64,000 nt of DNA. Source: Balanoglossus misakiensis. Its lineage: Eukaryota; Animalia; Hemichordata. Both the position numbers and the translations under genes were made by a program. This document shows positions 16,001 through 61,900 of this stretch, piece by piece (the first letter of the stretch is position 1; the number at the start of each line of letters is the position of its first letter). The notes below the pieces were generated by a model. The model worked only from the letters and a program-made list of their open reading frames with translations. It had not been told where the DNA came from and searched no databases. Where the stretch lies: positions 10,441,846-10,505,845 of the forward strand of contig CM082577.2 in the NCBI GenBank assembly GCA_040954595.2, in the 5' to 3' direction.

Positions 16001-16635
16001 AAGTGTGCTACTATCTGAAGTCTCTTTTTGTCTGATGATAAATACTCTACTGCAATGATATATATACACAAAAATATACTGATGAAATTTTCAGTGCGGT
16101 GGAAAGCACATTATTAAAATGGTTGTTTTCTCAGAATGAGGATGTTTTTGTGAGCGATTGATTGCTGGGGTTAACCAAAGAACACGAGAACTGTATCATT
16201 GCTAATAATTTTAATGTCTGTCCATTTTTTTTTTTTTTTGTGGTTTTTAAAAATGAGGAAATATTAGATTTTCACACCTGTTTATTTGAAAACCAAAATA
16301 GCGCCCTCTGTAGGCAAAATTTAATACCTTGCAGGTATCCAGCTAACGAGTTCAAAAATTTAAACCTGTGTTATGACATTTGTTTATTTTGGGCCAGATA
16401 TTGGGTGAAGACATAATTGTCTTTTTGTTGTGCATGTCCTGGGTGTGTGTGTGACAATGTGTGTGTGCATGTGTCGGTATGTGATTTACAAATATTTCAG
16501 AAATCCTGTTGGGGACACTTTTAGTAATATTCCAGTAAAAATAGCTGGTTGGTATCAAGCGGTTGCTATCAATAATACACGTAAATGAATATCCTTGAAT
16601 GTTTTTTTACTTCATATGATCCCTTGTCTTGAGTT

Positions 16636-16654
16636 TTCCTTAACTCCTGTGCAC
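16636..16654 (+). promoter_or_regulatory. U12 (minor spliceosome) branch site and AC 3' splice site of an AT-AC intron
   Basis: TTCCTTAAC at 16636-16644, then 10 nt ending in AC (16653-16654), no AG acceptor nearby; the exon resumes A|TGG TTC GAA CGA = (P)WFER. Confidence 0.9.
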
Positions 16655-16900
16655 ATGGTTCGAACGAGTCAGCATGTTGATCATCTTGCTCAACTGCATC
16701 ACGCTGGGGATGTACCAGCCGTGCGACGACGAAGTCTGCGACTCCCAACGCTGCAAGATCCTGGAGGGCTTTGACCACTTCATCTTCGCCTTCTTCGCCT
16801 CCGAGATGGTGTTCAAGGTGTTGGCCTTGGGATTTGTGGGCAAGAACGCTTACTTATCAGATACGTGGAATAGACTAGACCTATTTATAGTCATTTCAGG
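16655..16900 (+). CDS. Cav3: Cav3 exon: domain I S1-S3 ([14 protein letters not shown]...[12 protein letters not shown])
   Basis: 246 nt, AC acceptor, GG|gtgagt donor (phase 2). Confidence 0.95.
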
Positions 16901-22900: not shown

Positions 22901-25900
22901 GGTAAAAAACAAATAATGGAAGTTCCATGCTGTTTTTTAAAAGGCATGTTCAGTACATTCTTGCAGTAACCTTCCCACCCCTGCACCCAGGTGTGCGGCT
23001 CCAAATTTGCCACTGAAAACCATGACAGTGGATCAAACTATTGAAGTGGTAGGGGTGGAGTTGCAGATTCTTGGAACAGAAAATGTTTTATCCTTGTGAC
23101 TGCATAATATTGATAGTGTAGTATTTACCACTTTGTTCTCAACTTGGGTGCCAACTGCGGTCGAAATTGTCCTTTTAACATTCATTTAGATACAAATAGT
23201 CTTCTGTCATGTACTACGCATATTTTTTCAACCACATCTATCACAACAAACTATGTTCACACTTAAAGCGGCTGTATTTGGCTGTACGTGTACATGTTTG
23301 TTAACCCATTGAGGTTTGAGGGGAAGTTGGCGTTTTGCTAAACAAAGTTAAGTTAATTTGTTTTTCCATTGAGGGTGGAATTTGTTTGATATCCCGGACA
23401 AGAACCACATACCGTGGAAATTGGGGGAAATTAGGAATTTAGGAAACTTGGTTAGGAAACACATAAATGCACGGCGGTGGGACGTTTTACTCATTTCCTA
23501 ATTGGATTTTCAGAGAAGGTGCCACACATCATGCACAAATTGTTTTTGTCAAATCTCCCTCAACTCAACAATGATATATAATGTGCATATTTCGTCAAAG
23601 ACATTAGCATATTAGAGTTGACATTGTACTTTGGGGGGGGGGGGGGGGAGAATTTGGTGGATTTCTTGTGTGTTTAAAGTTGAAAAAATGTGGGCCATTT
23701 CATGAATAACCCAGTAACAGCCCTGACAAGTACAACAAAGATCACACGTCTGTATCACTAGCTGGGGTACATGCAGGGAGCGAATATATTTTTGGACTAG
23801 TTTTAAGTTTCTAGCAAATTCTTTTTAAGTGCAGAAATTTGCATGGCAGTACCACAGTGGAGTTACAGAGCTGTGTTGGCAAATTGCCACCTTTTGGATT
23901 TGCCCGTCAAAAATAGCCACTGCAATTTCCAGCAGCCAAAGAAAAAAGACGAACACTGAGATTCAACATTACATCACTATTTTAGCATATTATATACCGG
24001 TTAAGGATGTACGCGCAGAACATAAACCGGAAAACTGCGCGCCCCGTCTTTTTCCCATAGGATTACATTGAAAATTGCTAGAAAACAAACTTCTACTATT
24101 GTCATTTTCACGAAATTTTACACATAGCTCAGTCCAGCAAATATAAATTCATTGGTCAAATAAAATATAGGGGTCACCGCGCTCTATTTTGAGATAAATT
24201 GCGTCAAAAATTTTGCCCATAGACAAACCATTGGTGAAAAATGCTGAGTCAGCAGTTTTCTTCTATTATCGACTAAATTCATGGCTCTGTATTTCAAAAA
24301 CAAGCGCGGTGACCCCTATATTTTATTACGGATTTTCATTATACATACAAAGGAGAATCCAAAAATCCACAATTAAAAAAAATGACAATACTTTCAATTT
24401 TACTGAACGTACATCCTTAAGTGGAGGAAGCTCCATTTCTTGTATTAAGAGTAGATTTTACCAGGGTTGACATAATCAAGGCTGGGTGGGTTAATGGACA
24501 GTTCACCTCCGTGATTGCCGCAGTATCTATAATGTATATCGAATATGGTGATGTCCCTCTTGCCTTAGTAAACGAAAGTGGTTCGGTTTTAATAATAGCC
24601 ATGCACAGTGCATTTGCTGAGATAACCTTTGAAGTGAAGTTTATAATCTCAGTGGCATTGATTAAACTTGGCAATTCTTGGTGTGCGTACATGTACGTGG
24701 CGACAGATTTCCATTTGGATGTAAAGATGCGCGCGCAGAACGTAAACCGGTAAACGGCATATGTCTGCTACCAGAGGATTACATTGAGATTGCTAGAAAA
24801 CTGACTTCTGTGATTTTCAGGAAATTTTACATATACATGTAGCTCGGGGTATCAAAATAAATCATCGGTCAAATAAAATTGGATGGTCACTGCACTCTAT
24901 TTTGAGATAAACTTCATTAAATGTTTTGTCTATATATGCAAACAACTGGTGGAAAAATGCTGACTCAGCAGTTTTCGTCAATTATCGACTAAATCCACTG
25001 CCTTGTATTTCAAACACAAGTGCGGTGACCCGTGAATTTTATTACAGATTCACGCAAAATGGGACACTGTGTTCTCCCTTGCGTCACTTCCCGTTCTGAG
25101 AATCTAATAAGAACACGTAATCGTAATCTTGAAGTAATATCTTGTTCTTGCCTTTTGCAACGTCTCGTCAGTTGCAAACGTCATCCAGTAAAAAAAGCAG
25201 GTAACTAGGGCGGCGTACTCCTTAATAACCCAGCTCCTTCTCTTCCGTCAGACTTGGAAAAAAATGAGAAACTCCATTTTGAGATTACTTCTAGTGAACG
25301 GGGGTCTCGAACGCCTTCTTTCAATCTGTAAATGTCAAAATTGATTTGCCAGTCCAATTATTTCCAGGCTCCAAGCCCCCTTTTTTGGAGAAAGAAAATT
25401 CCTAGCCAGGGTACAGTAACAATAGCTATACCTCGGCACCAAGACAGAGTAATTTCCCTCGTGCCCGGGGGCCAAATTACGCCTCCCGATCTGATAAAAA
25501 TACACATTTCCTGCCAACCCCACCATGCATGTAATTTATTTTGTGAATTTTGTAGAGTCAATCTGGCATTTTCTTGTTTAAAGGCCATTTGTGAGCGAAA
25601 GTAGATGTCTTTAAACTCAGATGAATGAAATGAATTTTACATTTTGTTGGAAATCACTAATAGATGATATCGTCGTAGACAAAAGTAAAGAACTTAAAAT
25701 GTATGAATTGTCTGCTAACTGCATTGGTCGTGCATAACTTTCTTACATACACATCATACCCTTCAACTTTACCAAAAAATAATACAAACTTCAAGCTCCA
25801 GTAAACTCCAGAGGGAGAGATCTGAGACCGACTGACCATCCTAGTTGTTCTGTCAGAGTTTCTTGAAACGAAACAGCAGGGCGGTCATAAATTTGAAATT

Positions 25901-28900: not shown

Positions 28901-31900
28901 CCAGACAATTTCTCCAGTTCCTTTGGTGTCCGGTTTAGACAGGTTTCACTGTATATGATTATGATGTATGATGTAGAGATTGTCATCATTTTAATCATTG
29001 TGTCAAAAATGATTACTATTTAGTACACATACATGTATATACTTTTGTTCTTTTGATAATTGCAACATCCGAACCGTCTACTGAGAAAATTCTTATAACC
29101 ATCTCTTTTTGTCTTAACCCCACATCACCTTCCCCCATCCTCTTCCCCCCCCCCCCTCTCAATTCCCCTCCATCCCGCAGGTACGATTTACCAGAGTATT
29201 ACAAGCCTTCGTCCGCCCTGGAACACGAGTGGATATGTAGCCTGCCCAGCGACCCCGGAATGCTGCGATGCGGCGACACCTCTCTGCCGCGCATCCCCTA
29301 CACGATAGGAAACCTCATATGCAATGAAACTGTGGAGCCTAATATGAATTATACCTTGACGGGGACAAACATCAGCTCCTGTGTCAACTGGAACTTGTAT
29401 TACACCGAATGCCGCACGAGCGATTACAATCCTTTCATGGGCGCAATCAACTTTGATAATATTTTGTATGCCTGGGTGGCCATTTTTCAGGTAAAGCACT
29501 ATAGAATTCAGAGAAAACAATAACTTCACAAAAGTAACTTCACGTCATTGCATGGTAGACTTCAAGAGTCAAAAAAAAAGATGACAATTTCTTGATTCAT
29601 TGCCAGAACACAAATTCGTATTCATTCATGATCAGACTGACGTCAACAATCCGTTGAAATCATTTCTGCTGATATCAGCTTCCATTTTTCACAGTCATCT
29701 CAGTCATTGATTTTATTCATCATCAGAAAGTTGAATATTCAATGAGCAACTCTCAACCAAACAAAATTGAATTTCACAACAATAATTAACACACATGTAT
29801 AACACACAAATCTGGAGCATGCACAATTTGGCTATACAGCAACAAATATCTTCTTGTTTCAAAAATATTCTATAAATTTCTATTTTTTCATATCTTGTAT
29901 TTATAAACACACCGTCATAAATGAAATCTCTTCAAGCTCTTTTATCTATTCAGTCACATTAATTCATTATATATTCATACAAAATTTTGCTCTGCATGTT
30001 TTCAGATTTTGTTTCTGTCACATTAAATTACTTCTTCCGTCTTCTCATCACGATCTCCATCCCCCATCTCTCTCTCTCTACATCCCTTTTTATCTCGTTC
30101 TCTCTCTCTCTCTTTTTTTTGCTCTTCTTTATCACATTTCAATTTTTCAGGTTATAAGTTTAGAAAGCTGGGTTGAAATGATGTACTACTTACAGGACAC
30201 CCACTCATTTTGGGACTGGGTTTATTTTGTTACACTTATTGTTGTAAGTACCTCTTTCTACGCGTGCCCCCCTTACCGGAGGGGGGTGGGACGCGACACA
30301 CACACAACACACACGCGTCACATCTGTTGCGTTACACCTGGCTGTCAATGTGCACCTGGCTGTTACCCGGCACTCTGCTCCTTTACTGCTAGCTACTGCT
30401 TCTTCTCTCCCTCCCGCCCGACGGTAGTTTACCGCCATTTTCAGTAATCTGCATGTTAGTGAAGTCACTGTGTAGTCTGTTTCCCGTTTTGTAGGTTATA
30501 TCCCTTGAAGGCTGGGTTAACATCATGTATTTTATGCAAGACGGCCATTCCTTTTGGACGTGGATATATTTTGTGGTTTTGATTACTGTAAGTATTCGTG
30601 GACCCCCCCTATAATATAGCTCTGTCGTGGTGAGCAGTCTTTCTATATAACCTGTCGTTTTGTGGCTTTTTTGTGTGTTTCTGTGGATGTCGACTAACAC
30701 AACATCCCCCCCTGCCCCCCAAAACCAGTTACGAACCTAATTAATCTGGTGTTGCTGTAATAACACTAACGTGTCTCGTACCTGTGCCCAGGTGGACGAT
30801 TAGCACCCACTTTAACTGTGTAGAAACACATTGCTTACGTACCCCCTACAAGGTGCCGAGTTTACTCACCGTAAAAAAAATGGATGTGTTCCGACGCACA
30901 TTGTGGACACTATGAGCCAAAATATACAATCAGTCTTTTACAAAAGCCTTGCTGTGATAATGTGTGTACTCTTCTGCCTGTTCAATTGCTGATTCCATAC
31001 TAAGATATCAATTTGAAATATGCATTTTTGTCCTACTGTGATTTGCGTTTTTGTTTGAACTTTTAATTCCATGAGCCACCCGGGTGGCATTACCGTATCT
31101 TGTCGTAGAAACGAGAAATACACCCCTGATTTTGCCGCTAATTCTCTTCCCTTCTGTTTGCAGATTGGTGCCTTTTTCATGATCAATTTATGTTTAGTTG
31201 TCATAGCGACACAATTCTCAGAGACGAAGCAGCGCGAGAGCAAACTGATGAAGGAGCAGCGTAGGCGACTGCAGAGCTCCACGAGTACTTTGACGAGTTC
31301 GTCGGAGCCCGGCGGATGCTACGACGAGATTCTGAAATACCTGGCGCACCTGGTTCGCAGGGCCCGGCGGCGGATTGGACGCTTGCTGAAGCGGGTCCAG
31401 GGGCGGCGACAGCGGAAGGTCACGCCCGCCATCTCCCTGCGCAAGAAGCGGCGGAGATCCAACAAGTCGGTGCACCTGCACCACCACCACTACCACCACC
31501 ACCACCACCACTATCACTACGGCAACGGCAGCCCCCGGGCGCCGCGGGCCAGCCCGGAGATCAGCGACATCGGCTCCTCGCCCACCCGGCCCAACCGCCT
31601 GGTGCTGCCCTCCGTCAACAACAGCCTGAACCCCAGCAGCGAGTCGCTGCACTCCATCACCTACTGCACCGAGGCGGTCTCCAAGATCGACTCGGTGCTG
31701 CCCAGGATCCCCAGTCGCCGGGCTTCCCCGCACGCCATAGTCACCACCACCGCCACCATCTCCATCCACCGCGCCTCCTCCGTAAACTACCCCACCACCA
31801 GCTCCAAGGACACTAACGAGGCGCTGGCGGTCGCCAACACGAAAGCCGACCCCAAGCTGAACAACCTCTCGGATCTGTCGCCCAATCGGCTGACAGACAG

Positions 31901-34900
31901 GCTCTTGGACTCATGCAATGGGGGAAACACAGTACTTAATAGATATGATAAGCTGCCTCCAATTGATAGGACTAGAAACAATAATCCAGAACAAGAAAAA
32001 GGTGAGTGAGAAAATATAATTCTCTGTCATTTGTTGGTAGTGTATTAAGGTGGCATTGCATGAAACCGTCGAGACTTTTTCAGAGGCCTATTTCTCATCA
32101 AAGACAACGTTAAAACCCCCATAAACCATATATATTTCGGAAGCTGAGATTTTGAACTTTTGTTTGAGTTGCAAATATTATTGATCCCCGGAAATGTTGG
32201 CGATTTTGGGTGAAAAAACCCATTTTTTGATATTATGTCATGAAATTTAAAATAGGTAAAAAAGTTGACCATGCATCATGCATCTTAATATGTCATTCGA
32301 AACTAGAGTACACGTGCAAAAAAAACGGTAATTTTGTTTTGCGTTATCTGCTTCCATTGAGGAGTAACAGCGTTTGAAAGTTAGATTTCTAGTAAAATTT
32401 GATCAAATTCACGGTGAGTTGTATTGAATCAGAGTTTATTCCCGCCAGGGACACTTTATCGACTAACAAAAATACCGTTTTGTTGGATGGGTCATACACA
32501 ATCCCCAGAATTTGAGCAAATTCGGCCAACGCAGAGCGAAGCTATTTTCGTCTGAAGTTGTCAAGAGCAGCGAAAATGCAAACTGAGAAAAACGGCTATT
32601 TGCATTGTTGACACCTATTTGTTAAGCTGTGAACTCATTCAGAAAAGTGCTATTTTGGGGTGATTATGCACCATTTCCGCCAAGACGTATTAGTCAGGGT
32701 GTGGGTCAGTATTAGGCCTACCGATTTATGTAAAAAAGTAAAATTTGGCAAAAATCACAACTTTTCATGCAATGCCACCTTAAAGATCAACGACCTAAAC
32801 GCTGATGTGGCAATCCAGGTCAATGACCTTGAAATGAAAATGTAAAGCAAATTCAACCGTTGTGATTCTTATCGTTTCTTTCTTAAAAATTGTATTTATG
32901 AGAGAATTGATGGAGAGCAGCTCTGAGTGTAGGCAGGTATCCTTCGAGTTGTGAATTTGCAATCTCTTGTTCCAAAGTGTGCAAGTAAAGCAAAGTTTCA
33001 GTGTGTGAGACCATCAAGACATACGTGTATTATGTCCACTCCACACCTAAAAAGATGTGATACTATGTGTGAATATAACAGTGGCTCTGACTCTGTGTCA
33101 GACCATCGATGGATATTGCTAATCGAATGTCAAATGCTACTCAACTTCAAACAATCAAACACACATTCTGGCATGCAAGTGTGCATGCACACTCAGACAT
33201 ACTAGGATACAGTATACACATTTTAAAAATTGTAGATTGAATGATACTGAATCCTTAATTACATCAGCTATAAGTCTGTCAATGCAACTTAGAGAGAAAA
33301 ATGTAAATTTATGAAAAAAACCTGGAGAAAAATGTAAATTCATTGCAGCCATCTTTAGTTTACCAGTATACTTAGTGTGTGCCATTTTCCATTTTCAGGA
33401 ATGTTTGATCCGTCTTGTATGTCCACAGCGACTTGGCACTCATTCAAAATATACTCTGCAACTCTAGAGTAGATGGATGTAGGGGAAGGAAAAAAAACAA
33501 GCTGATTCTAAAAACTGACTTGTGATTTGTAATTTTGCACAGTCTAATTATTGAATAGTTTTGATAGCCACTGGGGTGCTGGCGATCACGCAAAAATTCA
33601 AACTATCCTGGGACTGGGAGGGAAACAGACAAATGGATTGTGTGTCAGTTGTAGTTGTATATACACATTCATGAAAAAATTGCAACTATGGCTCTGATTG
33701 AGTGTGTGAAGGAGTGGACTGAAATTGGAAAAAGTAGTTTTGGAATTTCAAGTATTTTGTATTTAAAGATCACTGCAGAGTTGAAGGAATTTAACCTCAG
33801 TGTAGTTGAGGGCAGGTGTCGTGTGGCCATTTCATGTGATGGAAGGTGAAAATGAGAGAATTTTGGTGCTGGAAAATTAAGACGTCAAAATTAGCTGAAT
33901 TTTTCTGTAGGGAGTGAAAAGGGTCTTGACACATACTAGTTGGAAAGTTAGCATCAAAATGTCTCTTGGAAGTGAATTACAAGTTTTGACCTGGAAGAAA
34001 ATGCAAATCTAACATCAGTTGTTTTCTTCTGAAAATCAAAGTGATTATCCCTCTATTGTGTGGTATGCTGACAATGTGTAACCTTAAAGGTATACGTTCA
34101 CCTATGGAAATTTACAGTTTCCATGGCAAACTGATATCTAGCCAATCACAGATTTTCATTGGGTGGCACAAGTGAAAGAAGAGTGCCACCCTTTGTTCTT
34201 CAGATCATTCAGATATGCAATTTTTGCCATTTATGGACATACATGTATGTACCGGTAAATTGGGGATGACCATGTACATGTACCTTTAAACATATGCTAA
34301 GTTATGTATGGTGAAAAGGATGTGTCTAATTCTTACGTGTGCCACTCATTGAAAATCTGTGATTGGCTATGTTTCAGTTTCTAATGGTAGCAGTGATTAA
34401 ATTTGCATACTAGGTGACTGTGTATCTTTAACACCAAAACGCAAGATCCAGCATGTAAAAGTGAGCCTCATGCAATCTTTCATTCTCTGTTCTCTTCTTT
34501 TTTTCTGTTCCACAGAGCGCATAACTCCGGCCCACACGCCCGTGGGTCAAAGGTTATCAGCACCAGTGTTATCAACAACTCCATCACCTTGTCCGTCCCA
34601 ATACTCACATTCCCCGTGTCCGTCGGCGCACGTCGAGTCGTCGTGTCACCTGCACACGTCCAGGTACGCCGTGCGCAGCGCGTGCCCGACCCACGGCTCC
34701 TGCCAGCACTGCCTGGAGTGCATGGAAAGCCAGGAGGCGGACTACGATTGGACCGACTCCGAGTCGGACACGGAGTCGGACTCCGATTCCGACTACGACT
34801 GGGACAAGAGCATGGTGAACTTGCCCAAGCAGCCGGTCGGAATCTTCGGGAGGTTCCGGAGGTTTCTGCGGAAGATAGTGGACAGTAAATATTTCATGAG

Positions 34901-37900: not shown

Positions 37901-40900
37901 AAAATGTGACCATATTGTGACTATAATTTTATTAAACTTTTTTGTATCTTTTCTCTCTTTCCAACAGCATTCTGGGAATGCATCTCTTCGGGTGTAAATT
38001 TTGTGAATATCTAAATGATGAAGAGAAGATCTGTGATCGAAAGAATTTTGATTCGTTGCTCTGGGCTATCGTGACAGTGTTCCAAGTAGGTGCCACAAAT
38101 GTGAAGTTCATGTCTCCCGTCAACAAAACTGTTCCCTTGGCTGTGTCCGTGTTATTCGTGGATTTCATTTCTTCCAATTATTAAATGGGGTTATTGCCTT
38201 CTGTAAAAGACTTTACTCCAGTGCCTGTGGTTATGACCGCTAATAACTCGTCCCATTGCTGTTAATGACATTGCTTTATATAAATGCCATGAAATTTTGT
38301 TGTCGCTTTTGCAGTGTGGCAGAGAAATTTGCTTTTTATTGTGTGCATGTGGTTGCTTGGATTTCAAAATTGCTGGTTTCAGCCACCCTAGTTCTGGAAA
38401 TGAATGACTTAATTGGGTCAAAGACTTTAAAGGGGCAAAAACGTTTTCTGAAGCATCAAATTTTCAATGTACATGCATGTCGGTTCTTCTGGCATTAAGG
38501 TGTATCATTCATGTTTCTGATCCAATTTTGAACTTTGTGGGAAAACAGTGACATTTATACAGTGATGGAATTTTCAGTTTGTTTTGTGATTCAATCCAAT
38601 ATGGCCACCAGTCGGCCATCTTAAAATGTCTGCAGGGGTGTACAGGTGCACATAAGTACATTCATTTTGCATCAGTCCAAAATGATGTCTTTTGAAATCC
38701 ACGCAAGGACTACATCATTCACAATCATTGTCTTCATGCGTCCTACACACTCGCGACATCCAGGTTCCCCATATCATTCATCTGGACTGTCACACCAAAG
38801 ATCACTCACTGTTTTACAGATGATGATGATAATGCCAACGTCATGTCATGTGGAGTATTTTTTTTACTGTCTCCACGGCCTCCTGAAGTCGAGAAATGAA
38901 ACGGGCAGCCATAAAAACTTTGTGATTAACTTTTAATGTTCTTGAATTGCAGATTCTAACGCAGGAAGATTGGAACATCGTGCTGTATAACGGCATGTCG
39001 AAGACATCCTCCTGGGCGGCGTTGTACTTTATCGCATTAATGACCTTTGGAAATTACGTGCTGTTTAATTTACTGGTGGCCATCTTGGTCGAGGGCTTCT
39101 CGTCGGAGGTGAGTCGTCTGATATGCAAGCAAACGCCAGGAAACGTTTGTCACGGTTGCCTTGATATTACCCACTTTGCAGACATCATTACCGACATTAA
39201 ATTCGACGCCAGGGATAATTAAAAGATGACTCACTTTCTGCAGACAATGTTTTTTCCCCCCGAAGTCAGGGGGAGACAACAAGGCTAGTACATTTGCTGG
39301 AGTCATATTTTATGGATAATTTGTTTTAAGCGATCAGTGTTTGGTACCTTAGTATGAAATATTGAATTTTGTCATTTTGAACAAAGATGTCTAAAACTCA
39401 CTGTAATATCTCTGGCAAGTGCAAACATTTCCATGCCTCTTGGTTTTTGTTATTTTTCAATCATTATGAACCTCGTGTAAAGGTTAATTGTTGGTAAACC
39501 GATCTCCGGGCTGTTTTGACTTTAAAATATTACAAAAATGCCATTTCATAACCTTGTCTCTACTCTTTAAACTCTCTTTCTCCCCCAAAATTGAGGAAGT
39601 GATTAGTTTCAGGGGCAGAGTTGTCTAATCCATTATTGTCACAGAAAATCTGAATGAACAATTTAAATCATCACTTTCTGGTATTCTGGTGGTGAAGTTT
39701 ACCTTTGGGCTGATTTCAGCTGCAAAAAAATACTCATTTTGACAGGTCTGTCGGATTGAACTGAGCACGTCCAGATCAACTTTTTCCTTCACATATTGTA
39801 CATTTCCCGGTGATCTCGGTCAGTTCTGATCTGTAATGACATGTTTTTCATTCACACCATTGTTTGCATGCACCGAAAACCAAAACCAATACTATCTACT
39901 TTTTTCTCTCTTTTTTCCTGTATCTCCATACACTCTACCACCACAAACTATGTATATATATATTTCTTATGTATATATATATATATATATACCCCTCCTT
40001 TTCTACCCCATCCACTCACGATGTTCACATTATTACATTTGGCTGCATGTGCTACGTTGTAAATATGCTTGGTAAGTACCACTCATCATCTCTTTCAGAT
40101 GTTTTTAAACTTTTTTTCCTTTACAGTTTTTTTTCTTTCATCTTAAATGTTACTTACAGCTTGGTGTGTTTTGAAGTATCTGTGTTGTATATTACCCTTT
40201 GTGACTGCATACATTTGCTTCTTGTGCCTAAAGTTGCCATTCGTGATGTTTATTAGTCCCCGCTGGGCAAAGTCCAAAAGGGGCTTAGAGCTTCTGTCTG
40301 TCCGTCTGTCTGTCTGTCTGTCTTGGCCACAAATGTTTCTTTATTAGTGAAAGCTGGCACAGAAAGCAGTGATCTTAGATCTGTGATGCACTGGTAATTT
40401 TTACCATCAACAGTGGACAACTGAGTATCTCTTTTCAAATATATCGAAATCAAAAATACATTTATCTTCAGTTGAATACACAGACTAGTTTACTAGGTCC
40501 TCACCAGGCATTTGTATTCTTGATATCGCCATAATTTATGATCATCCTGATATTCATGTGAAATTTTTTTTCTCACAAATCTTCACAAGACTTGGATATG
40601 TAGCCTTTGTCATTGGCTTGCTGGGTGTTGTATTTCATGTGGCATCCATTTTGTTGTACGTAATATGCCATTTTATGTTTGGCAACCAATATGCAGTTCA
40701 CACTTCAATGTGTTTTTGCCACTCCCCTGCTCTGTGAAGATTTTTTAACTGCTTTATGGAAACTATATCATCAACATTGATTGTGTTTTTTGCATTTTGT
40801 GTGATTTGTCATACGGCTTCTACATGTATCTTGCGATTTTTTTCTCTCAATATTCTTAACAGTGTGTGTCTCACAATTTGTGTGTTTTTGCCTACGCTCT

Positions 40901-43900
40901 GTCATTAATGGTAAAAGACTTGAATGCATAATTTTTTTGCTGTTTATGCTTAATAACCGAAATACGACACAGGCAATCCGCCGAATACGTCATCTAAACG
41001 TGTCTCCCTCTTTCAGGACGAAAAAAAGAAAGACGTAGATGCGGAGAGTTCCGACGACAGCTCCGAAGACGGCTCGCAGAAAAACAACAACTCGAAAGAC
41101 GCAAAGTTAGTAGAAGACGGGTCCCTGGATGAAGGTTGGTTTATATTTTGTGTGGTCTCCTATCATTTATACCAGTGACTTTATGTGTTAATGATATTTT
41201 AATTGCTGTATGCCTTGTCATGCAGTGAAACACTGTGTAGCATTTATTGCCGTGAGAAATATGTCGGACCGCGGTCATCGGTAATTGTGACAGTTCGATG
41301 TCTTTTCTGAACTTGTTCGTTTGATGTTATTACACAGTAAAAAAATTAAAGCTCACTTCTAAATCTTTTCTGAACTTGTTCGTTTGATGTTATTACACAG
41401 TAAAAAAATTAAAGCTCAGTTCTAAATCTTTTCTGAACTTGTTCGTTTGATGTTATTACGCTAGTAAAAATTTAAAGCGCAGTTTGGTAGCTGATATAGA
41501 ACTCGGTTTGACATTCATTGGTGATGTGAACATGGGGCTGGGAGCTCGCAAAAGTTCTTACACTCGGTTTGACCTAATTGTGGTGAGGGGTTAAAGATAG
41601 GGCAGCTGGGGTGTTACTGTCTCCACCCTACATGAAATTGGAGTTTATGATTTGAAGTTCTTGAGTGATGCTGCACAGTTGTGAATGTGTCTAGGACAGA
41701 CACCCCCTGGGCATTTGCCCACCAGACACTCACCCGAACCATCTCCCTAACCCTGTGCGCTAACTGGTGGATGGGAAATGGTTGGGTGTCCCGTTACAGA
41801 TCACCACACATTTTTAATCATCACACTAGCGCAGAAATATCAAATTGAGTATATATGAATCTTTAATTACCCCAGAAATTATTGCAGAGAGAAAAATGGT
41901 AGAAAATGGGTTTGACAGTGGTACATGTAGTAGGTATTATGATAGTGGTAGGTATGATGTTTGAAATAATAATCAGGACAAACATGACTGTGGCAGAGAG
42001 GGCCAGCTGTCATCTCAGATAGGTTTGGCATAATCTTTGGTAGAGCAGTGGCTATAGCCAGCAGATAGGCATCTGCTTGTCATCTGCACCGCCAAGGGCC
42101 AGAGATGCAGAAACAGCCGCAGGTGCTCTGTAACGTCTCAGACACGGTGTGTAGTAGGAGCCTATTCATTGCACCCAATGTTGCCTGTTTTTCTAGAAGG
42201 GAAGACGGCAGCTGACAGCAGCGATCCACACAGTTCTCACAGAGCGTATCACGGCAGTCATTTACGTGGCCCTCCTATCATTACTCATACAGCGGCCACT
42301 CCTCAGGGTTCGCCCAATGCAGACAACCCTAGTAGTAAGAGTAGCGCCCGGCACAACCACGACGCCACGCTGTTCGATTCCGACAGTAGATCAGTGGTGA
42401 GTACAAGTGTATGTGTGTTTTCCGCACTCTTAGTAAAACTGAGGCATTATTCACTTGTGTTTGGTGGGACATTTTAAAACAAAAATATGGTGCTTTGTTA
42501 TATTTTATGAAGAAAATTTTTTTTTGTCAAATAACTTTTAAATTGTCATTGCCTGTCATCTTTGAAGTTTAATCCTTCCACCCCCATTTCCACAATGCAT
42601 GGGTCCAAATACTTCATTGAAAATATTGAATTGACCCAAAAAGTAACAAAAAGAAGGATGTACAATGTATTTATTATTACCACAAGTTCAAAATTACAAG
42701 AAAACAGCCTTCATGGATTTGATGTACACATAAATGTGACCTGATAATTCTAATTTTGCTTCCGATAGTCCACGCTTAGTATTCGTGCATCGCCGCAGTT
42801 GCGCCGAAGGGGAAGTCGCAGTAGTGACTCGAGCTTTGCTGACAACAGCAATGGAAGACATTCCGAAAATGGCAGAGAGCGCAGGCCAATCAGACAACAC
42901 AACAGTCATCACAAGAAGAGGAGGTAGGTATACAGTGAAAATGTCTAAAATGGAACCCTGTCTAATCTTGAAACCTGTCTATACTGATCACATTTTCCAT
43001 TGCCTTGCTCATAAAACCACATGTTAAAAGAACCTATAGTATTAACTGGAAACCTTTGCAAATCGAACTTACATAGTAAACAGGGTTTACTAAAAAGTTA
43101 CTTGAAAAAATGGAAGAAAGAAACCACATGCTCTGTCTGTATTTATCAAGATTTTGTTTGTGTTATTTAATAAACAGACCTTCCATCGATAATAGAGAAG
43201 AGTCATCTGACAACAGCAACCTAGCGGCACCGGCCATGTCCGCGGAAAGCAGACGAGCGTCGTTCGCCTCCTGCAATGGGGGCTCGGTCACCGCCAGCAC
43301 CTGCAACGGCAAACGACCGTCCATCTGCAGCCAGACGCCCGACGACGACGACAAAACCGACGTCCACAAAGTCCCGTCGGTCGAGGTGGTTGAAGACGCA
43401 GACGCCAAAGACGAAGTGGTAAGCAGACCTAATTTGAATATGTCTGCATCTGTTTATGTTAAGCGGTTAAATTTAAATATGCAAATTACCGTACCCGAAT
43501 TAACACTTTTTTTCGCTTCTGTATTATTTAGGACGTGTGTGCATATAACATGTATGGCTATTTTATTTTAGATGTGTATAGAGGTTGTTCCTGGTGTGGT
43601 ATTTTTTTCCACGATAGAGTCGTTGATTTTTTCTAGAATTTATCATACCATATAGTATAGACAAAAATAGGACCCTTATTTGCCCTAAATGGAAAGTTAG
43701 TCCACATCTCCCTATGGGTCGACTGTTGATTTTTTGTTGTTTTCTTGTTTCATATAAAAACAGAAAAATATTTTCTGTGCACTTTAGTATGATGATAACT
43801 GCACACACCACCACCCGTATAAATATAATGCAACTCTCTTAGCTTGCACATTGAAAAATCATAAATGCCTGGTCTGTGTCGATCGAGTCAACTTCCGTCT

Positions 43901-49900: not shown

Positions 49901-52900
49901 TTTAGGTCAAAATTGAAAAATGTGACCCAGTCTGCTCAAAATAGAAATTCAACCTCAACCCATCCTTTTATAACTTCCTGAATTGGGACTTTTAATTGAA
50001 CTTTGACCTTGCGCTTGTCTCTCTGACCTTTGACCTTGTCTTGCAGTTGTTCAAGGGTAAGTTCCACTACTGCAAAGGCTACGACGTCAGACATATCAAG
50101 AACAAAACGCAGTGTCTAGATGACCCTGATAACCAGTGGTTGAACCAGCGCTACAACTTCGATAATCTGGGACAGGTAAACAAATCGGGCTTTGATATTT
50201 AATTATATATGGACATCATGTACACATGTAAACAAATGAAACTGATAAACGGTTTAGAAATTTTGTATTTTGATTAAACCTTTATTTTGAGAGCGTGTTC
50301 ATAAAAAATAAAACAGTTAAAAACAGACCAAGAAAAAAATCTTTCCAGACACAATAAAAACCTTTATCATGATTACAGTAAACAGTTAGTCTAAAAACAG
50401 TCAGAAAATGTTTTGCGCCAAAAGATGCTGTTCCTATTACATCCAAAGATTTAAAAGTTGCTTTGATCAAGTCTTTCTGGAATGAGATGTCCGATTGAGT
50501 GATGTCACAAACTAAGATCTGACCTATGTGTATATGTCAACTCCTTGTCAGTGTCTGTATTTTCACCACACTGACACCCTCCGCAGTCACCAGTGTGCTG
50601 TTCGATTTTGAAGTATTTCACTGATTATATCGAGAACCTAAGAACTGAAGACAGGTTTATGTGTTTCCTTCTCTAGGCTCTGATGGCACTGTTTGTGTTG
50701 GCATCCAAAGATGGCTGGGTGGAGATCATGTACAATGGTTTAGATGCTGTTGGAATAGACCTTCAGGTTAGTTGTCCATACTTTGAACTCTGACCCCCCT
50801 CCTGGTGACCTATGACATCATGGCGACACTACATTTGACCAGGCTTTAAAGGGTGAAGGCAGTAATGGACAGCTATTATCCTTACCCAAGTTGAAATATT
50901 TTGTATGTGGCATTTAGTGCATTTGGTGTATAGCAATATATACTCCTTCCCTCCCCAAAAGGCTAATAAATAACTTTCATTGATGTGAATAACTGAGAAT
51001 TGAATATTTCTTACATGGGATGGCCTAATGAAAATTTGATCTCATGTGACAGTGCATTGAAGGCTAATTCACAGAGAGACATGTCTATGGCAAGAGTTAT
51101 GCTGATGAAGATAATTGTTAAAAAAATTTGTTCCTTTGAAAGACATTTGACATATTCTCTTGCCTTGTGAATTTTGCATCCACTTGATTTCATTGTGAAT
51201 TTCTTTTATTTGAATGCACCAATTAAAACATTTCTTTTATATGAATGCACCAATTAAAACGTTTCTTTTATTTGAATCCACCAATTTAAACATTTCTTTT
51301 ATTTGAATCCACCAATTAAAACGTGCCTTTCTTCCCTCTTTTCCTCCAACAGCCAATCAGAAACTACAACGAGTGGTTAATCCTTTACTTCATCTCATTC
51401 CTTCTGATCGTGGGGTTCTTCGTGCTGAACATGTTCGTGGGCGTGGTGGTGGAAAACTTCCACAAGTGCCGGGAAGAGCAGGCGGCGGAGGAGATGAGAC
51501 GGAAGATGGAGAAGCGGCAGCGCAAACTGGAAAAGGCCAGACAGAGTATGGCAGCTGAGCTTTCTAACGGTTCGCCCGGTCGGTAATGGTGGTGCTGTTT
51601 TGCTACTTGATATACATTGCAAGGCTCTGCCCCGATCAAAAGATTTTTCAGTTATCAGAAACTGTTGTTTATTAAAATTTCGGCATCCGAAACGGAACAA
51701 GATAAACGACACGCAGGATGAAAAAAACAAAACCCCGGGAATCCAAGAAGACTTGCAATGTATCATGTGTGGTCTAGTTCACAGAAAGCTCGCACAGTTT
51801 AATGCATGAAAAAATAACGATGAAAGAAAAGCTATAGACGTTAAAATGCATGAGACTTTGCTGTGGCATTTCTGGAATAACTTATCTAGCTTCTTAATTA
51901 GTTTGTGCCACTGATTGCAATAATAACTGTAAATTCCCTTTAAATAAATTCACTTTAAAACACCCCTTAACTTTTAATGCCATCTTTTTAATGCCCATTT
52001 CCTATTCTCATTGTTTATATTGATCTCTTCATGATCAAATACAAAGAGCTTTGTTGGAGATGAGAAATTATTAATGGTATATATTTTTCTTCTATAAACC
52101 GTGTATGCCATATTGGCTCAGTTATATATGTCTTTCTTCCTTGACTTTCGCCTTTAATTTATGTTACTCAGTCTTGACCCTGTAAACAAACAACTCTGTA
52201 AACAAATAAAAACATTTCTTGCATCATTTCTTGACTTTCTCCTTGAAATTAATGTTTTTCCAAAGTGAAGGTAGCATGCTCAAAATTGACCACAATCAGA
52301 GCCCCGTCATTTGTTTTTGTTAGTTGGTAGATATTTGAAATAATGCAAGCGCAGAGTTTTGGGGGACATTTTGAATATTGCATTTTGGGAAATTTGAGAT
52401 AATTTTATTTCTCTAATTCAAATTTGGTCAGGGACCTTTCAGAATATTTCGTTTGTTTTGAGCACTTCAAAAAGAGGCAGCTCTTGTGAAAAATTCCAGG
52501 AAACCTTATGCTTGCTTTTCCCAGAAAGAACCCTCTTTAATAGAAACAGGGCTGCTTATCACATCTCCTTAGCGCTTGTCATTTGGGTTGTAGGGTTTCT
52601 TGTCACTTTTTGCTGGGATGCGTCACATACAAATTGCTAGTTGCTACTAACACAGGGTTGATAAAACAGTCCTTACTGGTGTAAGCATGCTTTTCTGCAA
52701 ATGCAATAAAGTGTTCATAACTGTCTTGAATTCATACTAAAAATTATGTGGAAAAAAATAACCAATTGCCTGCTTAGGAATGTCGGTGCGTAGATAACAT
52801 GCATTGGTGTTGTTGGTAAAGTCACATCGAATTGTTAAACACATTAACATAATTAACACTCAAAGGTTCATCTCCCAGCATGCTTTGTGACTCCCGGCAT

Positions 52901-55900: not shown

Positions 55901-58900
55901 GAATGTAATCTGATGTTTATGGCTGAAAGGGAATTTGTAAAAAAGGGCGTTGACCCCGCCAGCCGCTTTCCAAACGCTTGACGTCCAACACTGCCCTCTA
56001 TAGATCAGCCGGAGCGGAGCCCGTACCTTACACTGTACAGTTATCCTTTGAGTATTGCAATAAAACATGAACTAGAATCATTAAGCGTCACAGCTTACTA
56101 AACATGATAAGGTGATTTGTATGTTGACATTTTGCTCTCACCAGGTGGAACCAGTTAGATATGTTAATTGTAGTGCTCTCGATACTCGGCATAGTTCTAG
56201 AAGAGCTGGCAGGGTCCGAACTCCCCATCAATCCGACCATCATTAGGGTTATGAGGGTTCTTAGGATAGCAAGAGGTAAGTTCTTTTGTGTCATTGTGCC
56301 ATGTACATATCTATGTGCACTAGATTCATGTGCACATGTTTGGACATACATGTAGCTATGAACACATACTGGCCTTCACATGACATGAAAATATTTAATG
56401 TACATGCGGTCAGATTTTAAGCCTACCTGTAGATACATGTTACACACTTTGATATCTATATGTACACATGATTGAACATCATATCTGTACATCATACAAT
56501 ACTTTGATATACTCAAATACAATACTTCACAAACAAGAACTATCTATGTACACATAATTGAATACACATTGATATGAATGTATGTACCTGTTTTGAAACA
56601 CTTGTTTGATTCTTGAACATATTTATGTGCTACATGAACATGATATAGTTTGGGTAGTCTGATGCATGCAACATGCTTTCATGTTTTTGTGGGATGTTAT
56701 AAACAGTAGAAAACTGAACATATTTACAGATGTGCATGTTTCTTTTAGAGAGTTGGCCATGAGACGAAAATCGGCTGTCTGATCAAAGACAGCTTATTTT
56801 AAAATCTCATACCCAGCTCTCTCTCATTGAAACAGACTCACCAACAAAAGCAAAGTTAAAGTAAACATAGCTTCTATTTTTGATACTAGAAGTGCTGTGT
56901 TGAATTCTTTTGCAGATTGGTAGTTTTTCAATGCATGATACGAATATATACTAACCTTAGAACTTTTTTCAGCGATGGCTGTTGCACATGAAAATGCTCT
57001 TCTGCTTTTATACATCAAAAGTTTTTGACCATACAAACATTCTCAGAAACCACTCACATCAATTACACAACAGACTACGTGTTTACAAACAAACATTTTG
57101 CACAAAAATTGAGTGATCGTGATTGGTTTCATTTTTTTTTTCAAACAATCATTTAAAAAAAATAATTTTTGTTTTTTAAAAACCTGTGTTTCAAAAAATC
57201 AGATGAAAAAAAAATTGTTTTTGTTATCTTTGTACAGATAAGTGTCTAATGATGATTTGTTTGGCAGACTTTGACAATTCGAAAACAAAATTATTGGAAA
57301 AAACATTGAACCAAACTGAATATGAAGCATGTCGTGATTATGCATGTTTTTTTTAATTATTTCAGTGAAGAGTGTGGGCTTTTAGTTTGTTTGTTTTTCT
57401 ATGCAATGAAATTCTACGTTTTAACATGTTTATTTTTACAACTTTATTTTTCATTTTATTTTCTCCAAGTATGATTTCTGGGTGCATTATCCATACCAAT
57501 GAAACTAACACCAATATACAACAACACCCTATCCCCATTCTCCTCTGGCACATTTATTCTCAGAACCTTTTTACACTAGACACAAGTAATCTATGCACTT
57601 TTATTTCAATGATGTCAACACTGTGCTGGGTGTATCCTCTTTTCATCGGACACCTCGTAAACTGTTCTAATTCTTCTTCTGTGACATATTACTCTCTCCT
57701 TCTACATTGCTTACACCACCTCGGGGCAGTCTTAAAACTGATGCGGACAATGACAGGCTTACGGTCACTGCTAAGTGTTCTCATGATAGCAATACCAGAG
57801 GTAACATTGCCAACGTCTGCATGCTGTCGTCAACCAGTGGTGACATCGCTCTCTCCTCTCGAACCCCCGGTCGTCAGGAAACGAGAGAGAAAGGGAGAGC
57901 GAGAGCGAGAAACAGTAGCATTCATAATACAGAGATGCAGCGTGGAGCGCGTGCGTGCGTGCGTCTGGTCGGAGATGTTCTCAGAAATTCGACCCCCCCC
58001 CCCCAAAAAAAAAAAAAAAAAAAAAAAAAAATTATCGGCAATTCAGAGTTTTCTGGGCAATAGACAAAAAAGAATAATTTTGCACGCAAGTAGTCCAGAA
58101 CAGTTGGGCTTGTTAATGCCAAAATTTTGCAAATCACGTCAGACGACACGGCGCGTACGACACGCTGCGTCTCGCGACACAACCGATAGGCCTTGCTTAT
58201 TACAGTCACCTCTCATCCATTAGCACCCGCTCACAAAAACCTCCTGGCTAACCACCACCACCACCACCAACCACCACTGCCACACCAACCGTCGTGCTTG
58301 GGGAAAGCTGTATGTTTGATGTTTGTCCCTGATTTTACTTCTTCCCCCCTTTTTAGTTCTCAAGTTGCTGAAAATGGCCAAGGGTATTCGTCAGCTCCTT
58401 GATACGGTCCTTCAGGCTTTGCCACAGGTAAAATCTCAGACACATCAACCACCAAACAAAAAAATATAGGAACAAACAAAAAGAAGTTATAAGGGCAGAA
58501 ATACCACCGAGAGTGGAGGAATTGATGTCCCCGTCATCAGTTTAATCATTGCTTTTGGAAATTGGTTGTGAGAGTGTGTGTGAGAGTGAGATCATCATCA
58601 TTACCATCATCACCATCATCATCTATAGTGTAAAGTTAAACTGCTATGTAGACATCTTCTAGAGCGCCCACATAGCCATCGTCCTACCCTTACTGAATAA
58701 GACTGATGCGAAACCAGGAAAATTCCACAAAAGTAGGAAAAAAAATGTCTGTGCGCTTTCTGGTGAAGGGAACTTGCGGCTTCCTCGTCCTTTACGAGAT
58801 TATTACTCAGAAATAAAAACAAAGGCAAAAAAACTTGAACAAAATTTGAAAAAAAATGTGTGCTGTCTGGTGGAGGGAACGTGCCTCTTTCTCTGTCCGT

Positions 58901-61900
58901 CTTTATCTTCCTTCATCTCATTTGGTGAAATTCGTCCTAAATATCGCCTTCATCATCGTGTGCTTGTGATCATTCTGTGACGTGGCTGCTCTCATCAGAT
59001 ATTTCCAGATGAATTTGATGCATTCATGGTCATTTTTACATTTTATTTATCGTTTGGAGGGTCACAAAATTCAATTAGATACTCGGGGCATTTACCCAGT
59101 CGCTGTACGTCCTATCCTCTCCAAAATCACCAGCCAAATTTTTCTAAAAAAAGACCCCTTTTTTGCATTTTTTTCCACCAAGTGATAATTTTGCTGAGTA
59201 AGAGATTTATTGAGTCTGTGACACCGTCGCTTATAAAGCATCTACTTCTTCAGTTTTGCTTAGAATTAGAGAGGCACTCATTTGCTTGTTAGATTTTTAG
59301 ATACCCTCGTAGAATCACTGTCACTATAGTATCGCTTGGTGCTTTTTTTTGGTCACGTCATCTTTTTGACAGGTAAAATTGTCGCAGAAACAGATTTGAA
59401 TTTTTGATAGGAAATGTTGCTTTCCTTTGTTGCCATGTGAACTAACTGTGCATCTTGCCTTTTGTTCGCCGTGTTAGGTTGGAAATCTGGGGCTGTTGTT
59501 TTTCCTTTTGTTCTTCATATTTGCTGCCTTAGGGGTGGAGCTGTTCGGAAGGCTCGGTGAGTAGCTTGACTTTATGACCTTTGACTCCCCGCAGCAAGTG
59601 CCCTTTGACCCATGACCTCAGCAACAGGTAGTGTCACACTAGTGAACTTCAATTATAACATACTGGTACTCTTGGACTTGTCAGGAGAAATACGCAAGGT
59701 AAAACTCACTGATGAGTTTTGGCAGAACTGCTCGAAATAACTTTCTAAAGCTCATGTTTACTAATCTTTGATGTTTCGTTGTGTGGGGTGTGTTGACATT
59801 TTTCTCTCTATTTTTCCTCCCGTGCAGATTGCACAGACAGTAATCCGTGTGCAGGCTTGGGAAGACATGCCTCATTCCGTAATTTTGGCATGGCGTTCCT
59901 GACTCTGTTTCGGATTTCTACTGGTGACAACTGGAACGGGATCATGAAGGTATACTCTGCCGTGCTTTTGTTTTTTCCTTTATAGTTTCTTCTTCTCTCA
60001 GGAATTCAAGAATTGTCGGTTGTAAGTGGTGTAATTACCGGCATGCATCAGGATTGTTGCTGTCGTCGTTTCCCCCCATCCAATAAAATCAATCAATTTT
60101 ATGCCCCTTTCAATTTTCAGGACACCTTGCGCACGGCGCCCATGTGCGACAATTCCTCCAACTGCGAGTACAACTGCTGCGCCAGCCCCATCCTCTCGCC
60201 CATCTACTTTGTGAGCTTCGTGCTGATGGCCCAGTTCGTGCTGGTCAACGTGGTTGTGGCCGTGCTGATGAAACACCTTGAGGAGTCGCACAAGATGGAC
60301 CAAGACGATGACGAGGAGGATCAGGAGATCGCCGCCGAGATCAAGAAGGAGATCGAGGAGGAGGAGGCTCGCAAGCGCAAAGAAGATGAGGTGGGTCAAG
60401 TTTTCTTTTTATTTGTTTTCTTACGAATAACTTGTGTTATAGTTCACTTTGTTGTTTTAGCTAGCGTTTGACACGATCAAAAGTAGACGTCGTCCAAACT
60501 GTGAATGTTGTATTGTGGAGCAAAAGAAACTGTACACCGGTATCGCCCCGCCCTAATTTTATCCAATCCAAAATTGTATTAATTGATTATAACCCATCTC
60601 TCTCTCCTTACTGTCTTTACTCAACCAGAACACTTCATTTGTTGTCTGTCACTGTGTGTAACAGTAACATTTGCTGTTTCCTCACGCACTGTCATGTTGT
60701 GTCCTCTTCTCCCCTGCCAGCATTAACCAACACAAAACCCATATAATAACATGTACAACTTTATAAGATGTTAGTAAAGCTTTGGACAGGCACTGACGTA
60801 GCATTACGGGGCTGTGATTGGTTATTGGCCATAGGTGTCATAAAGACCTGAATGGAATTGACCAATCAGAACTGCACTACCATAAACTTGCTCTTACCGC
60901 AGACTCCCTAGTTCACTCACTTGGTGTAACGTTCTCCTGAGACAAATCCACTACCTCAGCACTTCATGCTTTAGTTGTTTTACTCATCGATGTCCATTTA
61001 TGTTTTGCCTTTTTTATTAAATTTACCATCATTTTTCTACAACCCATCCCATCATTTTTCTACAACTCATCCCATGATCTTCTCAGGAACTGGGACCAAC
61101 ATGTGGTCTGCTGCAGGTATTTATTTACTTCTGCTTGCCTGTTTAATTTTACTACATAGCTTTTTTTTGTTGTCATGCTCTCTTTCTAATGTCCATCACC
61201 TTTTAAGCATGTGCAATATGCAAAACATCATCATGAATATGCAAAAAACAAACATAAATATGCAAATCACTATGATGATCAATCCCCCTGTGGCCATCCT
61301 CGCAACTGAATGTGTATTTTTAGGATTTCCACACCACCACCAAATTTGTTAGCATTGACCCCACTCCATCTTTTGTTCTATTTAATTGTGTAGAATTTAG
61401 AGTACAAGTACAAGGCACGAGTTTGAATTAAAAAATTCAGCAAGTTTTAACCAACTTGTATTTTATTATTTTTATGTACAATTTTGTCAGATGACTGATT
61501 CATACTGTAATTCTGTAATCCAAGAAAAACTCAAACATGAGTTAAATGTGAAGGTAAAATTTTTACCTCAAATCTCAAGAAGGTAAAATATTGACACAAA
61601 AACAATTTTGTGTGACCTTACTTACTTACTTTACTACAAAATTTCATTTTTTTATTCACCACAGAATTTTTGCTTGTCAAAATTCTTATTTTGTCTCGTT
61701 GCCTATGGATACAGTAATCTCTTTGAACTCAAGTTTCAATTTTGTAATTCTCCGATCACATTTGCTGTGCAAAGAACTGGAGGTGTTCTCAACTGTCTAT
61801 TCTCAAAATCGTTACTGTCCATTCAATATCAAAGTGCGACTCTGCTGAGCTGTTGTTGCCGATTTTCTCCACATTGCCATGGCAACCTGTCGTCAGATGT

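Follow-up and report, generated by a model that had tools for sequence, protein, structure and literature searches.

In Cav1.2 the P2-S6 region of domain I is covered by two duplicate exons, 8 and 8a, that are mutually exclusive, as the exon pair considered here likely is; unlike that pair, they begin after the filter Glu and act mainly on drug sensitivity. In NALCN, as described in passages of PMC3557258, mutually exclusive exons 15a/15b and 31a/31b switch the filter between EEEE and EKEE or EEKE. Exons 15a/15b resemble the present pair in being a tandem duplicate of an exon that spans the filter, P2 and the start of S6, whereas the NALCN switches belong to another channel, lie in domain II or III and replace Glu with Lys. 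Within Cav3, exons 12a and 12b of Lymnaea are likewise mutually exclusive, form part of the pore module of invertebrate Cav3 and alter ion preference, but they encode the domain II turret before the filter and are of unequal length and cysteine content (passages of PMC9694082, PMC5379919 and PMC7382465). The text passages covered from PMC4436565, PMC5379919, PMC7382465, PMC9694082, PMC10120453 and PMC6259924 mention exon 12 as the only splice site in the Cav3 pore, and the last two, in the same passages, call the EEDD filter universal in Cav3.

In the 64,000 nucleotides of Balanoglossus misakiensis DNA analyzed here (the window), it is the domain I filter exon of a Cav3 gene that is duplicated, while the turret exon is single and 12a-like. 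The two copies differ by Glu or Asn at the domain I position of the DCS locus, which varies between genes in Cav1-Cav3 and in the window would vary between splice forms of one gene (PMC2151654, in part). In titles, abstracts and text passages, together with supplements of PMC5379919, PMC7456537 and PMC7382465 searched by term and seen in part in their long rows, an alternative Cav3 domain I filter exon is undescribed, as the preliminary description of this DNA had supposed; figures, Senatore et al. 2014 (JBC) and some supplements lay outside the scope of this search and may show the exon. The domain I filter exon is a real and conserved site of splicing in the Cav3 pore, and apparently one not described before.

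Most of a single Cav3 gene lies within the window, on the + strand; its reading frames are open in three joined exon blocks that leave out the II-III linker exons. The pore exons outside domain I are as follows.

37968..38085, + strand: single, 12a-like domain II turret exon; agrees with the Saccoglossus row of the PMC7382465 supplement at 35 of 39 residues
38953..39108, + strand: domain II filter exon with Glu, Asp at +1 and Ile at +4
50677..50766, + strand: domain III filter exon with Asp and Glu at +4
59828..59949, + strand: domain IV filter exon with Asp, Asn at +1 and Gly at +4, which completes EEDD

Judged from these exons and those of domain I, the gene is an EEDD Cav3 channel gene: the filter reads EEDD with Asp at domain II +1, and its closest solved and annotated relatives are Cav3 channels. 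In a tree of 25 proteins and 1176 columns, built from Cav3 rows only and without a hemichordate or crinoid row, its sister group consists of six rows from sea stars, urchins and sea cucumbers (UFBoot 99). Its I-II linker is 62.5% identical to that of Patiria over 272 aa, 45.2% to that of a snail and 43.9% to that of amphioxus. By hand count against the PMC7382465 supplement, seen in part, the turret exon equals the Saccoglossus row in length and exceeds the urchin row by one residue. A translated self-scan of the window at E 1e-3 found one turret copy and no exon 12b; because the same scan missed a domain IV exon pair described below, other diverged duplicates could also escape it. Just 5′ of an intron end in AC and of the first domain I exon found, positions 16631-16657 read TTCCTTAAC, with a branch motif that we take to be U12-type; the arrangement is in keeping with the U12 AT-AC intron that four-domain channels are said to have. 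At 24002-25050, 41291-41484 and 51198-51330 the introns contain repeats: a duplicate of about 340 nt (77% identity), short copies in tandem, and scattered inverted elements.

The duplicated exon and its neighbors lie as follows, with residues numbered from the filter position (0).

29181..29490, + strand: upstream exon for the domain I turret and P1 helix; its phase-0 donor is common to A and B
30151..30243, + strand: copy A, the upstream domain I filter/P2/S6-start exon; Glu 0 (codon 30163), Ser +1, Glu +4 (30175), Asp +17
30495..30587, + strand: copy B, the downstream domain I filter/P2/S6-start exon; Glu 0 (codon 30507), Gly +1, Asn +4 (30519), Thr +17
31164..32001, + strand: downstream exon for the remaining IS6, the gating-brake region and the I-II linker, in which the 272 aa compared with Patiria lie

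The domain I filter/P2/S6-start exon of this Cav3 gene thus exists in two intact copies, A and B, that diverged long ago. They are adjacent and homologous, each is 93 nt long and in phase 0, and each has an AG acceptor and a GTAAGT donor; the introns around and between them measure 660, 251 and 576 nt. The spliced frame through domains I-II is open with A and likewise with B. The best four PDB sequence matches for each copy are the domain I filter segments of Cav3.1-3.3, and a homologue search with copy A among proteins of 73-2000 aa returned one match among two candidates. The peptides are identical at 21/31 residues and the DNA at 61/93 positions; of the codons, 13 are the same in both, 8 show synonymous differences and 10 encode another residue, giving pN 0.26 and pS 0.71 with a saturated NG86 dS of about 2.25. 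A carries four acidic residues and B two. When neutral copies were simulated with substitutions only and no indels, AG/GT sites, freedom from stops and at least 21/31 identity survived together in 3% of runs at 0.25 substitutions per site, in 1 of 100,000 at 0.5 and in 0 of 100,000 at 1.0. The pN/pS values and this simulation point to purifying selection on both copies. The exon coordinates and splice sites of the preliminary description, its flanking junctions at 29490 and 31164, and its counts of identity, acidic residues and differences at +1, +4 and +17 around a shared filter Glu all agree with our recount.

Named relatives carry counterparts of both versions. RefSeq isoforms, which are usually based on RNA reads, include the echinoderm alternatives already, unremarked; the counts that follow are of annotation models, not of reads. 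Patiria has an A-like segment (ESWVE and YYLQD) in 3/12 models and EGWTD in 9/12, Acanthaster has the A-like version in 1/11 and the other in 10/11, and Lytechinus divides 1/12 and 11/12 among models reaching domain I (15/17 members listed). Strongylocentrotus has the first type in all six models that reach domain I (15/17 listed; nine without domain I), and the second version occurs in Diadema (3/3) and in the Holothuria cluster (2/2). Exactly one 31-aa segment is present in 46/46 echinoderm models reaching domain I, among the models listed. More broadly, among 326 fetched proteins longer than 500 aa, 31 residues occupy the slot in 309, the anchors went unmatched in 15, and one protein has 0 residues and one has 118. 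A single version is found in Branchiostoma (16/16 seen, of 62 members), Biomphalaria (13/13 reaching domain I) and Physella (10/10). At +4 each of the two echinoderm versions has an acidic residue, and their steady differences fall at +6 (Gln/Met), +15 (Pro or Gln/Phe) and +17. In a tree of the 31-aa exon each of the two forms a clade across sea stars and urchins (support 97 each), with A placed beside the sea-star alternative (48) and B beside the other clade (44), supports too low to assign orthology. Ser at +1 was considered as a novelty of A and rejected: the molluscan Cav3 seen, from snails (Lymnaea among them) and oyster, showed no other residue at this position, with 12a and 12b alike, and the urchin counterpart of A has Gly there.

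Because echinoderm gene models carry either version and never both, A and B are likely spliced mutually exclusively in the window species. Mutually exclusive isoforms had been proposed from the B. misakiensis sequence; the annotated isoforms of two sea stars and one urchin bear this out for the relatives, and its extension to the acorn worm follows from them. Inclusion of A and B together would stay in frame, and since both exons keep the frame, it is splicing control, not message decay, that has to account for exclusion. Two stretches of the locus are candidates for such control.

30006..30150, + strand: A acceptor region and putative regulatory tract, AG-free over 143 nt, with CT repeats and a final 48 nt that are 88% pyrimidine
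30244..30494, + strand: A-B intron of 251 nt, with a G/C hairpin within 30256-30300 and one TGCATG at 30450

The AG-free run of A is the longest of 12 acceptors measured (17-140 nt in the others); that of B is short, at 17 nt, with 60% pyrimidine. The long pyrimidine tract of A and the weak acceptor of B may thus serve as control sites for exclusion. Pyrimidine tracts and TGCATG, which occurs at 0.8 per kb in the window, are presumably sites for PTB- or Rbfox-type proteins. The 251-nt intron folds no more strongly than its shuffles (z +0.88), the inverted repeats are short and mostly AT-rich, and a duplex scan, run without a control, found no clear docking/selector RNA pairing. At 30441-30447, 48 nt 5′ of the B acceptor, TTTTCAG is followed by an in-frame TAA and is a possible poison acceptor.

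With respect to permeation, the charge change at the filter position that marks the NALCN exons is absent from the window pair, which is not a NALCN-type switch because the filter residue is Glu in both copies. What changes is the +4 ring of the channel, EIEG with A (two acids) and NIEG with B (one). Passages of PMC2151654 identify this ring as the DCS locus, which in Cav3.1-3.3 reads DKDG, DVNG and EVNG. There, conversion of Cav3.2 DVNG to DKDG shifts the Ca/Ba ratio and mole-fraction behavior with reversal potential and gating unchanged, a domain I Asp to Glu exchange at the DCS has little effect, and DCS mutants of high-voltage channels keep divalent/monovalent selection; the same passages hold that the DCS is not the sole determinant in Cav3, and the mutants they describe include no domain I acid-to-Asn test. 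In simulations of Cav1.3, the domain I +4 Asp (D368) is the sole ligand of the outer Ca2+ site (PMC12146731, in part). The A/B switch would put one negative charge on the outer Ca2+ loading site or take it off, with the EEDD filter constant. A would favor Ca2+ capture, and B would bind Ca2+ more weakly at the outer site, with a shifted Ca/Ba and block profile and little change in Na/Ca reversal potential. Because +4 belongs to the DCS ring, whose mutants shift Ca/Ba preference without a change in reversal potential, we predict a modest change in divalent handling for the window pair. Of the earlier proposal that the isoforms differ in permeation or block, this retains a modest divalent shift; a Na/Ca effect is disfavored by the frequency of Ser +1 in molluscs and by the unchanged reversal potential of DCS mutants. 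On balance, we lean towards reading A and B as a long-diverged pair, likely spliced one at a time, that would retune one outer-site charge with EEDD kept.

In likely annelid relatives the same exon slot appears to be further changed: the downstream copy there carries Asn at +4 and Ala instead of the filter Glu. When metagenomes were scanned with the exon that follows A and B, at least 54 loci were recovered; the filter exon was reached in 17 of them, with 19 copies, and among the matches listed Ala replaces the filter Glu in 13 copies while Glu is kept in 6. A profile-free search gave 329 hits and 154 exon copies among 150 of them, 27 with Ala, and all 27 with Asn at +4. Tandem pairs in which a Glu copy precedes an Ala copy with Asn +4 occur in five records. 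In L038 and L051 the two are 133 and 109 nt apart with splice sites intact, and P0004, P0005 and P0006 read through the Glu copy and then the Ala copy over spacers of 15, 20 and 14 residues, 42-60 nt of DNA that would suit steric exclusion. Among the matches listed, the eight loci that span exon 6 to exon 8 have the Ala exon only (five) or the Glu exon only (three), and a profile search found no further filter-exon copy in them. All four Ala codons occur among the 12 distinct Ala-exon DNAs, for which pN averages 0.058 and pS 0.739, and Ala is thus neither an error nor a product of decay. Against this reading stand frame breaks in the next exon of L048 and L054 and a Cys at a conserved Trp in L011.

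An annelid origin of the Ala-exon records is likely, given that the Ala copies form a clade with the copy of Owenia fusiformis (support 95) and that the turret of P0426, which has the Ala exon, is close to the Capitella 12b row. The Owenia model CAH1794430.1 itself has the Ala exon with E, D and D in the other domains, or AEDD. Owenia also leads narrowly in best-match scores of the Ala loci against named proteins, except for L018 and L038. Cav3 genes or models with only the Ala exon are L007, L011, L012, L024, L054, P0331 and P0426; with L018 and L038 added, the exon-8 sequences of this set form about four classes, which suggests several Cav3 paralogues in the likely annelids. Two Cav3 pore versions per genome, comparable to these Ala-only and Glu-only genes, are described for anthozoan Cav3a and Cav3b, but what differs there is domain II +1 (Asp to Asn), not the domain I filter residue (PMC9694082 and PMC10120453, in part). 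In the literature searched, AEDD appeared together with T-type in no paper and together with Cav3 in no ranked paper.

The likely annelid pairs do change charge at the filter position in the manner of NALCN 15a/15b, to neutral Ala and not Lys. They also share with NALCN an upstream Glu copy, a downstream altered copy and lineages with only the altered copy (PMC3557258, in part), and the likely annelid Cav3 pair may work like the NALCN switch with Ala in place of Lys. Replacing a single Glu by Ala in Cav1.2 makes Ca2+ block about 10-50-fold weaker (passages of PMC2233694), and a table in PMC12146731 gives a domain I mutant that keeps about 0.73 of the Ba2+ conductance; AEDD channels are accordingly predicted to conduct but to be less selective, with weaker Ca2+ block of monovalent current. 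In the likely annelids, where the second copy exchanges Glu for Ala, sequence gives good support to the idea that selectivity is tuned through a domain I filter exon. The independent tuning route first proposed for B. misakiensis finds its better example there, and the effect predicted for the window pair is smaller than envisaged.

An acidic first copy and a second copy with Asn +4, in the window and in the likely annelid pairs alike, would fit one old duplication. A single ancestral duplication for ambulacrarians and annelids could not be established, with supports of 44-48, deep nodes of the 31-aa exon tree below 50 and echinoderms that break the pattern. Independent duplications are about as likely as one old event.

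The gene has a second pair of alternative exons, in the domain IV S4-S5 linker.

57730..57800, + strand: alternative domain IV S4-S5 linker exon, 71 nt; its counterpart is used in Patiria, Acanthaster and Lytechinus models
58357..58427, + strand: canonical domain IV S4-S5 linker exon, 71 nt, partner of 57730-57800

The two are identical at 31/71 positions, and their co-inclusion would shift the frame. The alternative exon is used in 1/12 Patiria, 9/11 Acanthaster and 2/13 Lytechinus models (Lytechinus among members listed), and its peptide is identical in sea stars and urchin. This pair is likely a gating switch. In Branchiostoma, P0284 and P0296 differ from other models in two near-identical versions of the linker, with Ser or Phe at one site, which could be a young duplicate or allelic.

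The domain I pair might itself be mutually exclusive but selected for its P2-S6 loop and S6 start, so that the isoforms would differ less in permeation than in gating, surface delivery or the binding of drugs and toxins. Exons 8/8a of Cav1.2 change IS6 pharmacology, and the gene studied here has the second alternative pair in a gating element. Seven of the ten residue changes between A and B lie at +8 or beyond, and chimeras take their voltage sensitivity from the domain I pore module (PMC4436565, in part). The steady differences between sea-star and urchin versions also fall away from +4, where both are acidic; this missing acid/neutral contrast runs counter to our reading of the +4 position and leaves a gating or pharmacology role open. 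We nevertheless think it unlikely that such selection dominates, as most of the changes are conservative (Y/F, L/M, V/I) and the fixed differences of the likely annelid pairs sit at the pore-facing positions 0 and +4. A true Na/Ca switch like that of snail 12a/12b, with Ser +1 making a NavAb-like LESW filter or with fewer outer charges letting Na+ pass, is decidedly improbable. It draws on one-domain channels, in which Ser +1 favors Na+, and on Gly as the stated rule at domain I +1 (passages of PMC10120453), on the failure to find exon 12b in the window gene and on the reported absence of Nav1 from echinoderms and hemichordates (passages of PMC6259924). The reading is weak for the window because Glu is present in both copies and Ser +1 is the sole state seen in molluscs, including Biomphalaria (13/13) and Physella (10/10), both among models reaching domain I and with 12a and 12b alike, as well as Lymnaea. 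In addition, the urchin counterpart has Gly, Ser sits on the more acidic copy so that the two changes would oppose each other, and high-voltage DCS mutants leave divalent/monovalent selection unchanged (PMC2151654, in part).

Even less probable is near-equivalence of A and B, both kept for efficient splicing in different cells. The retention of every core filter residue in A and B, their very different acceptors and the single version in amphioxus and snail models would suit it, but the echinoderm versions have stayed distinct across sea stars and urchins, and the annelid-like copies differ at the filter itself. It is hardly credible that one copy is a dead pseudo-exon or that the pair is an assembly artefact: the acceptor of B is weak and use is judged from models of other species, yet neutral decay is rejected by the simulation, both versions are annotated in three echinoderm genera, and two copies with 61/93 identity between unrelated introns are not two alleles of one exon. 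With these alternatives weighed, the retuning of one outer-site charge remains our preferred reading of the window pair.

More tentatively, and just short of where we would call it probable, we propose that the Cav3 domain I filter exon is an undescribed splice switch of bilaterian invertebrates that would retune the outer pore in acorn worms and echinoderms and, in annelids, would yield natural AEDD channels with much weaker Ca2+ block and more Na+ current. The predicted effect is modest in the window pair and larger in the likely annelids. If true, annelid AEDD, made by splicing or fixed in paralogues and without the domain I filter Glu and the outer-ring acid, would be a route that does not depend on exon 12a. 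What decides the preference of T-type channels for Ca2+ or Na+ is an open question, for which these genes offer natural matched pairs differing in one 31-residue segment: the window pair is a test of the outer ring with the filter fixed, and the likely annelid pair is one of losing the domain I Glu while purifying selection acts. The question also bears on excitability in echinoderms and hemichordates, the groups reported without Nav1 (PMC6259924, in part).

Three minor features of related Cav3 sequences were also seen. Rotifer Cav3 paralogues (P0040, P0155-P0176) have Ser, Asn or Gly at domain I +1 and often lack the +4 acid. The sea-star models P0240 and P0326 have TADNW, not TGDNW, at the domain IV filter. 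In the chordate-like Cav3 loci L004 and L023, the filter exon is fused with the next by loss of the intron, and L004 also lacks the upstream intron.
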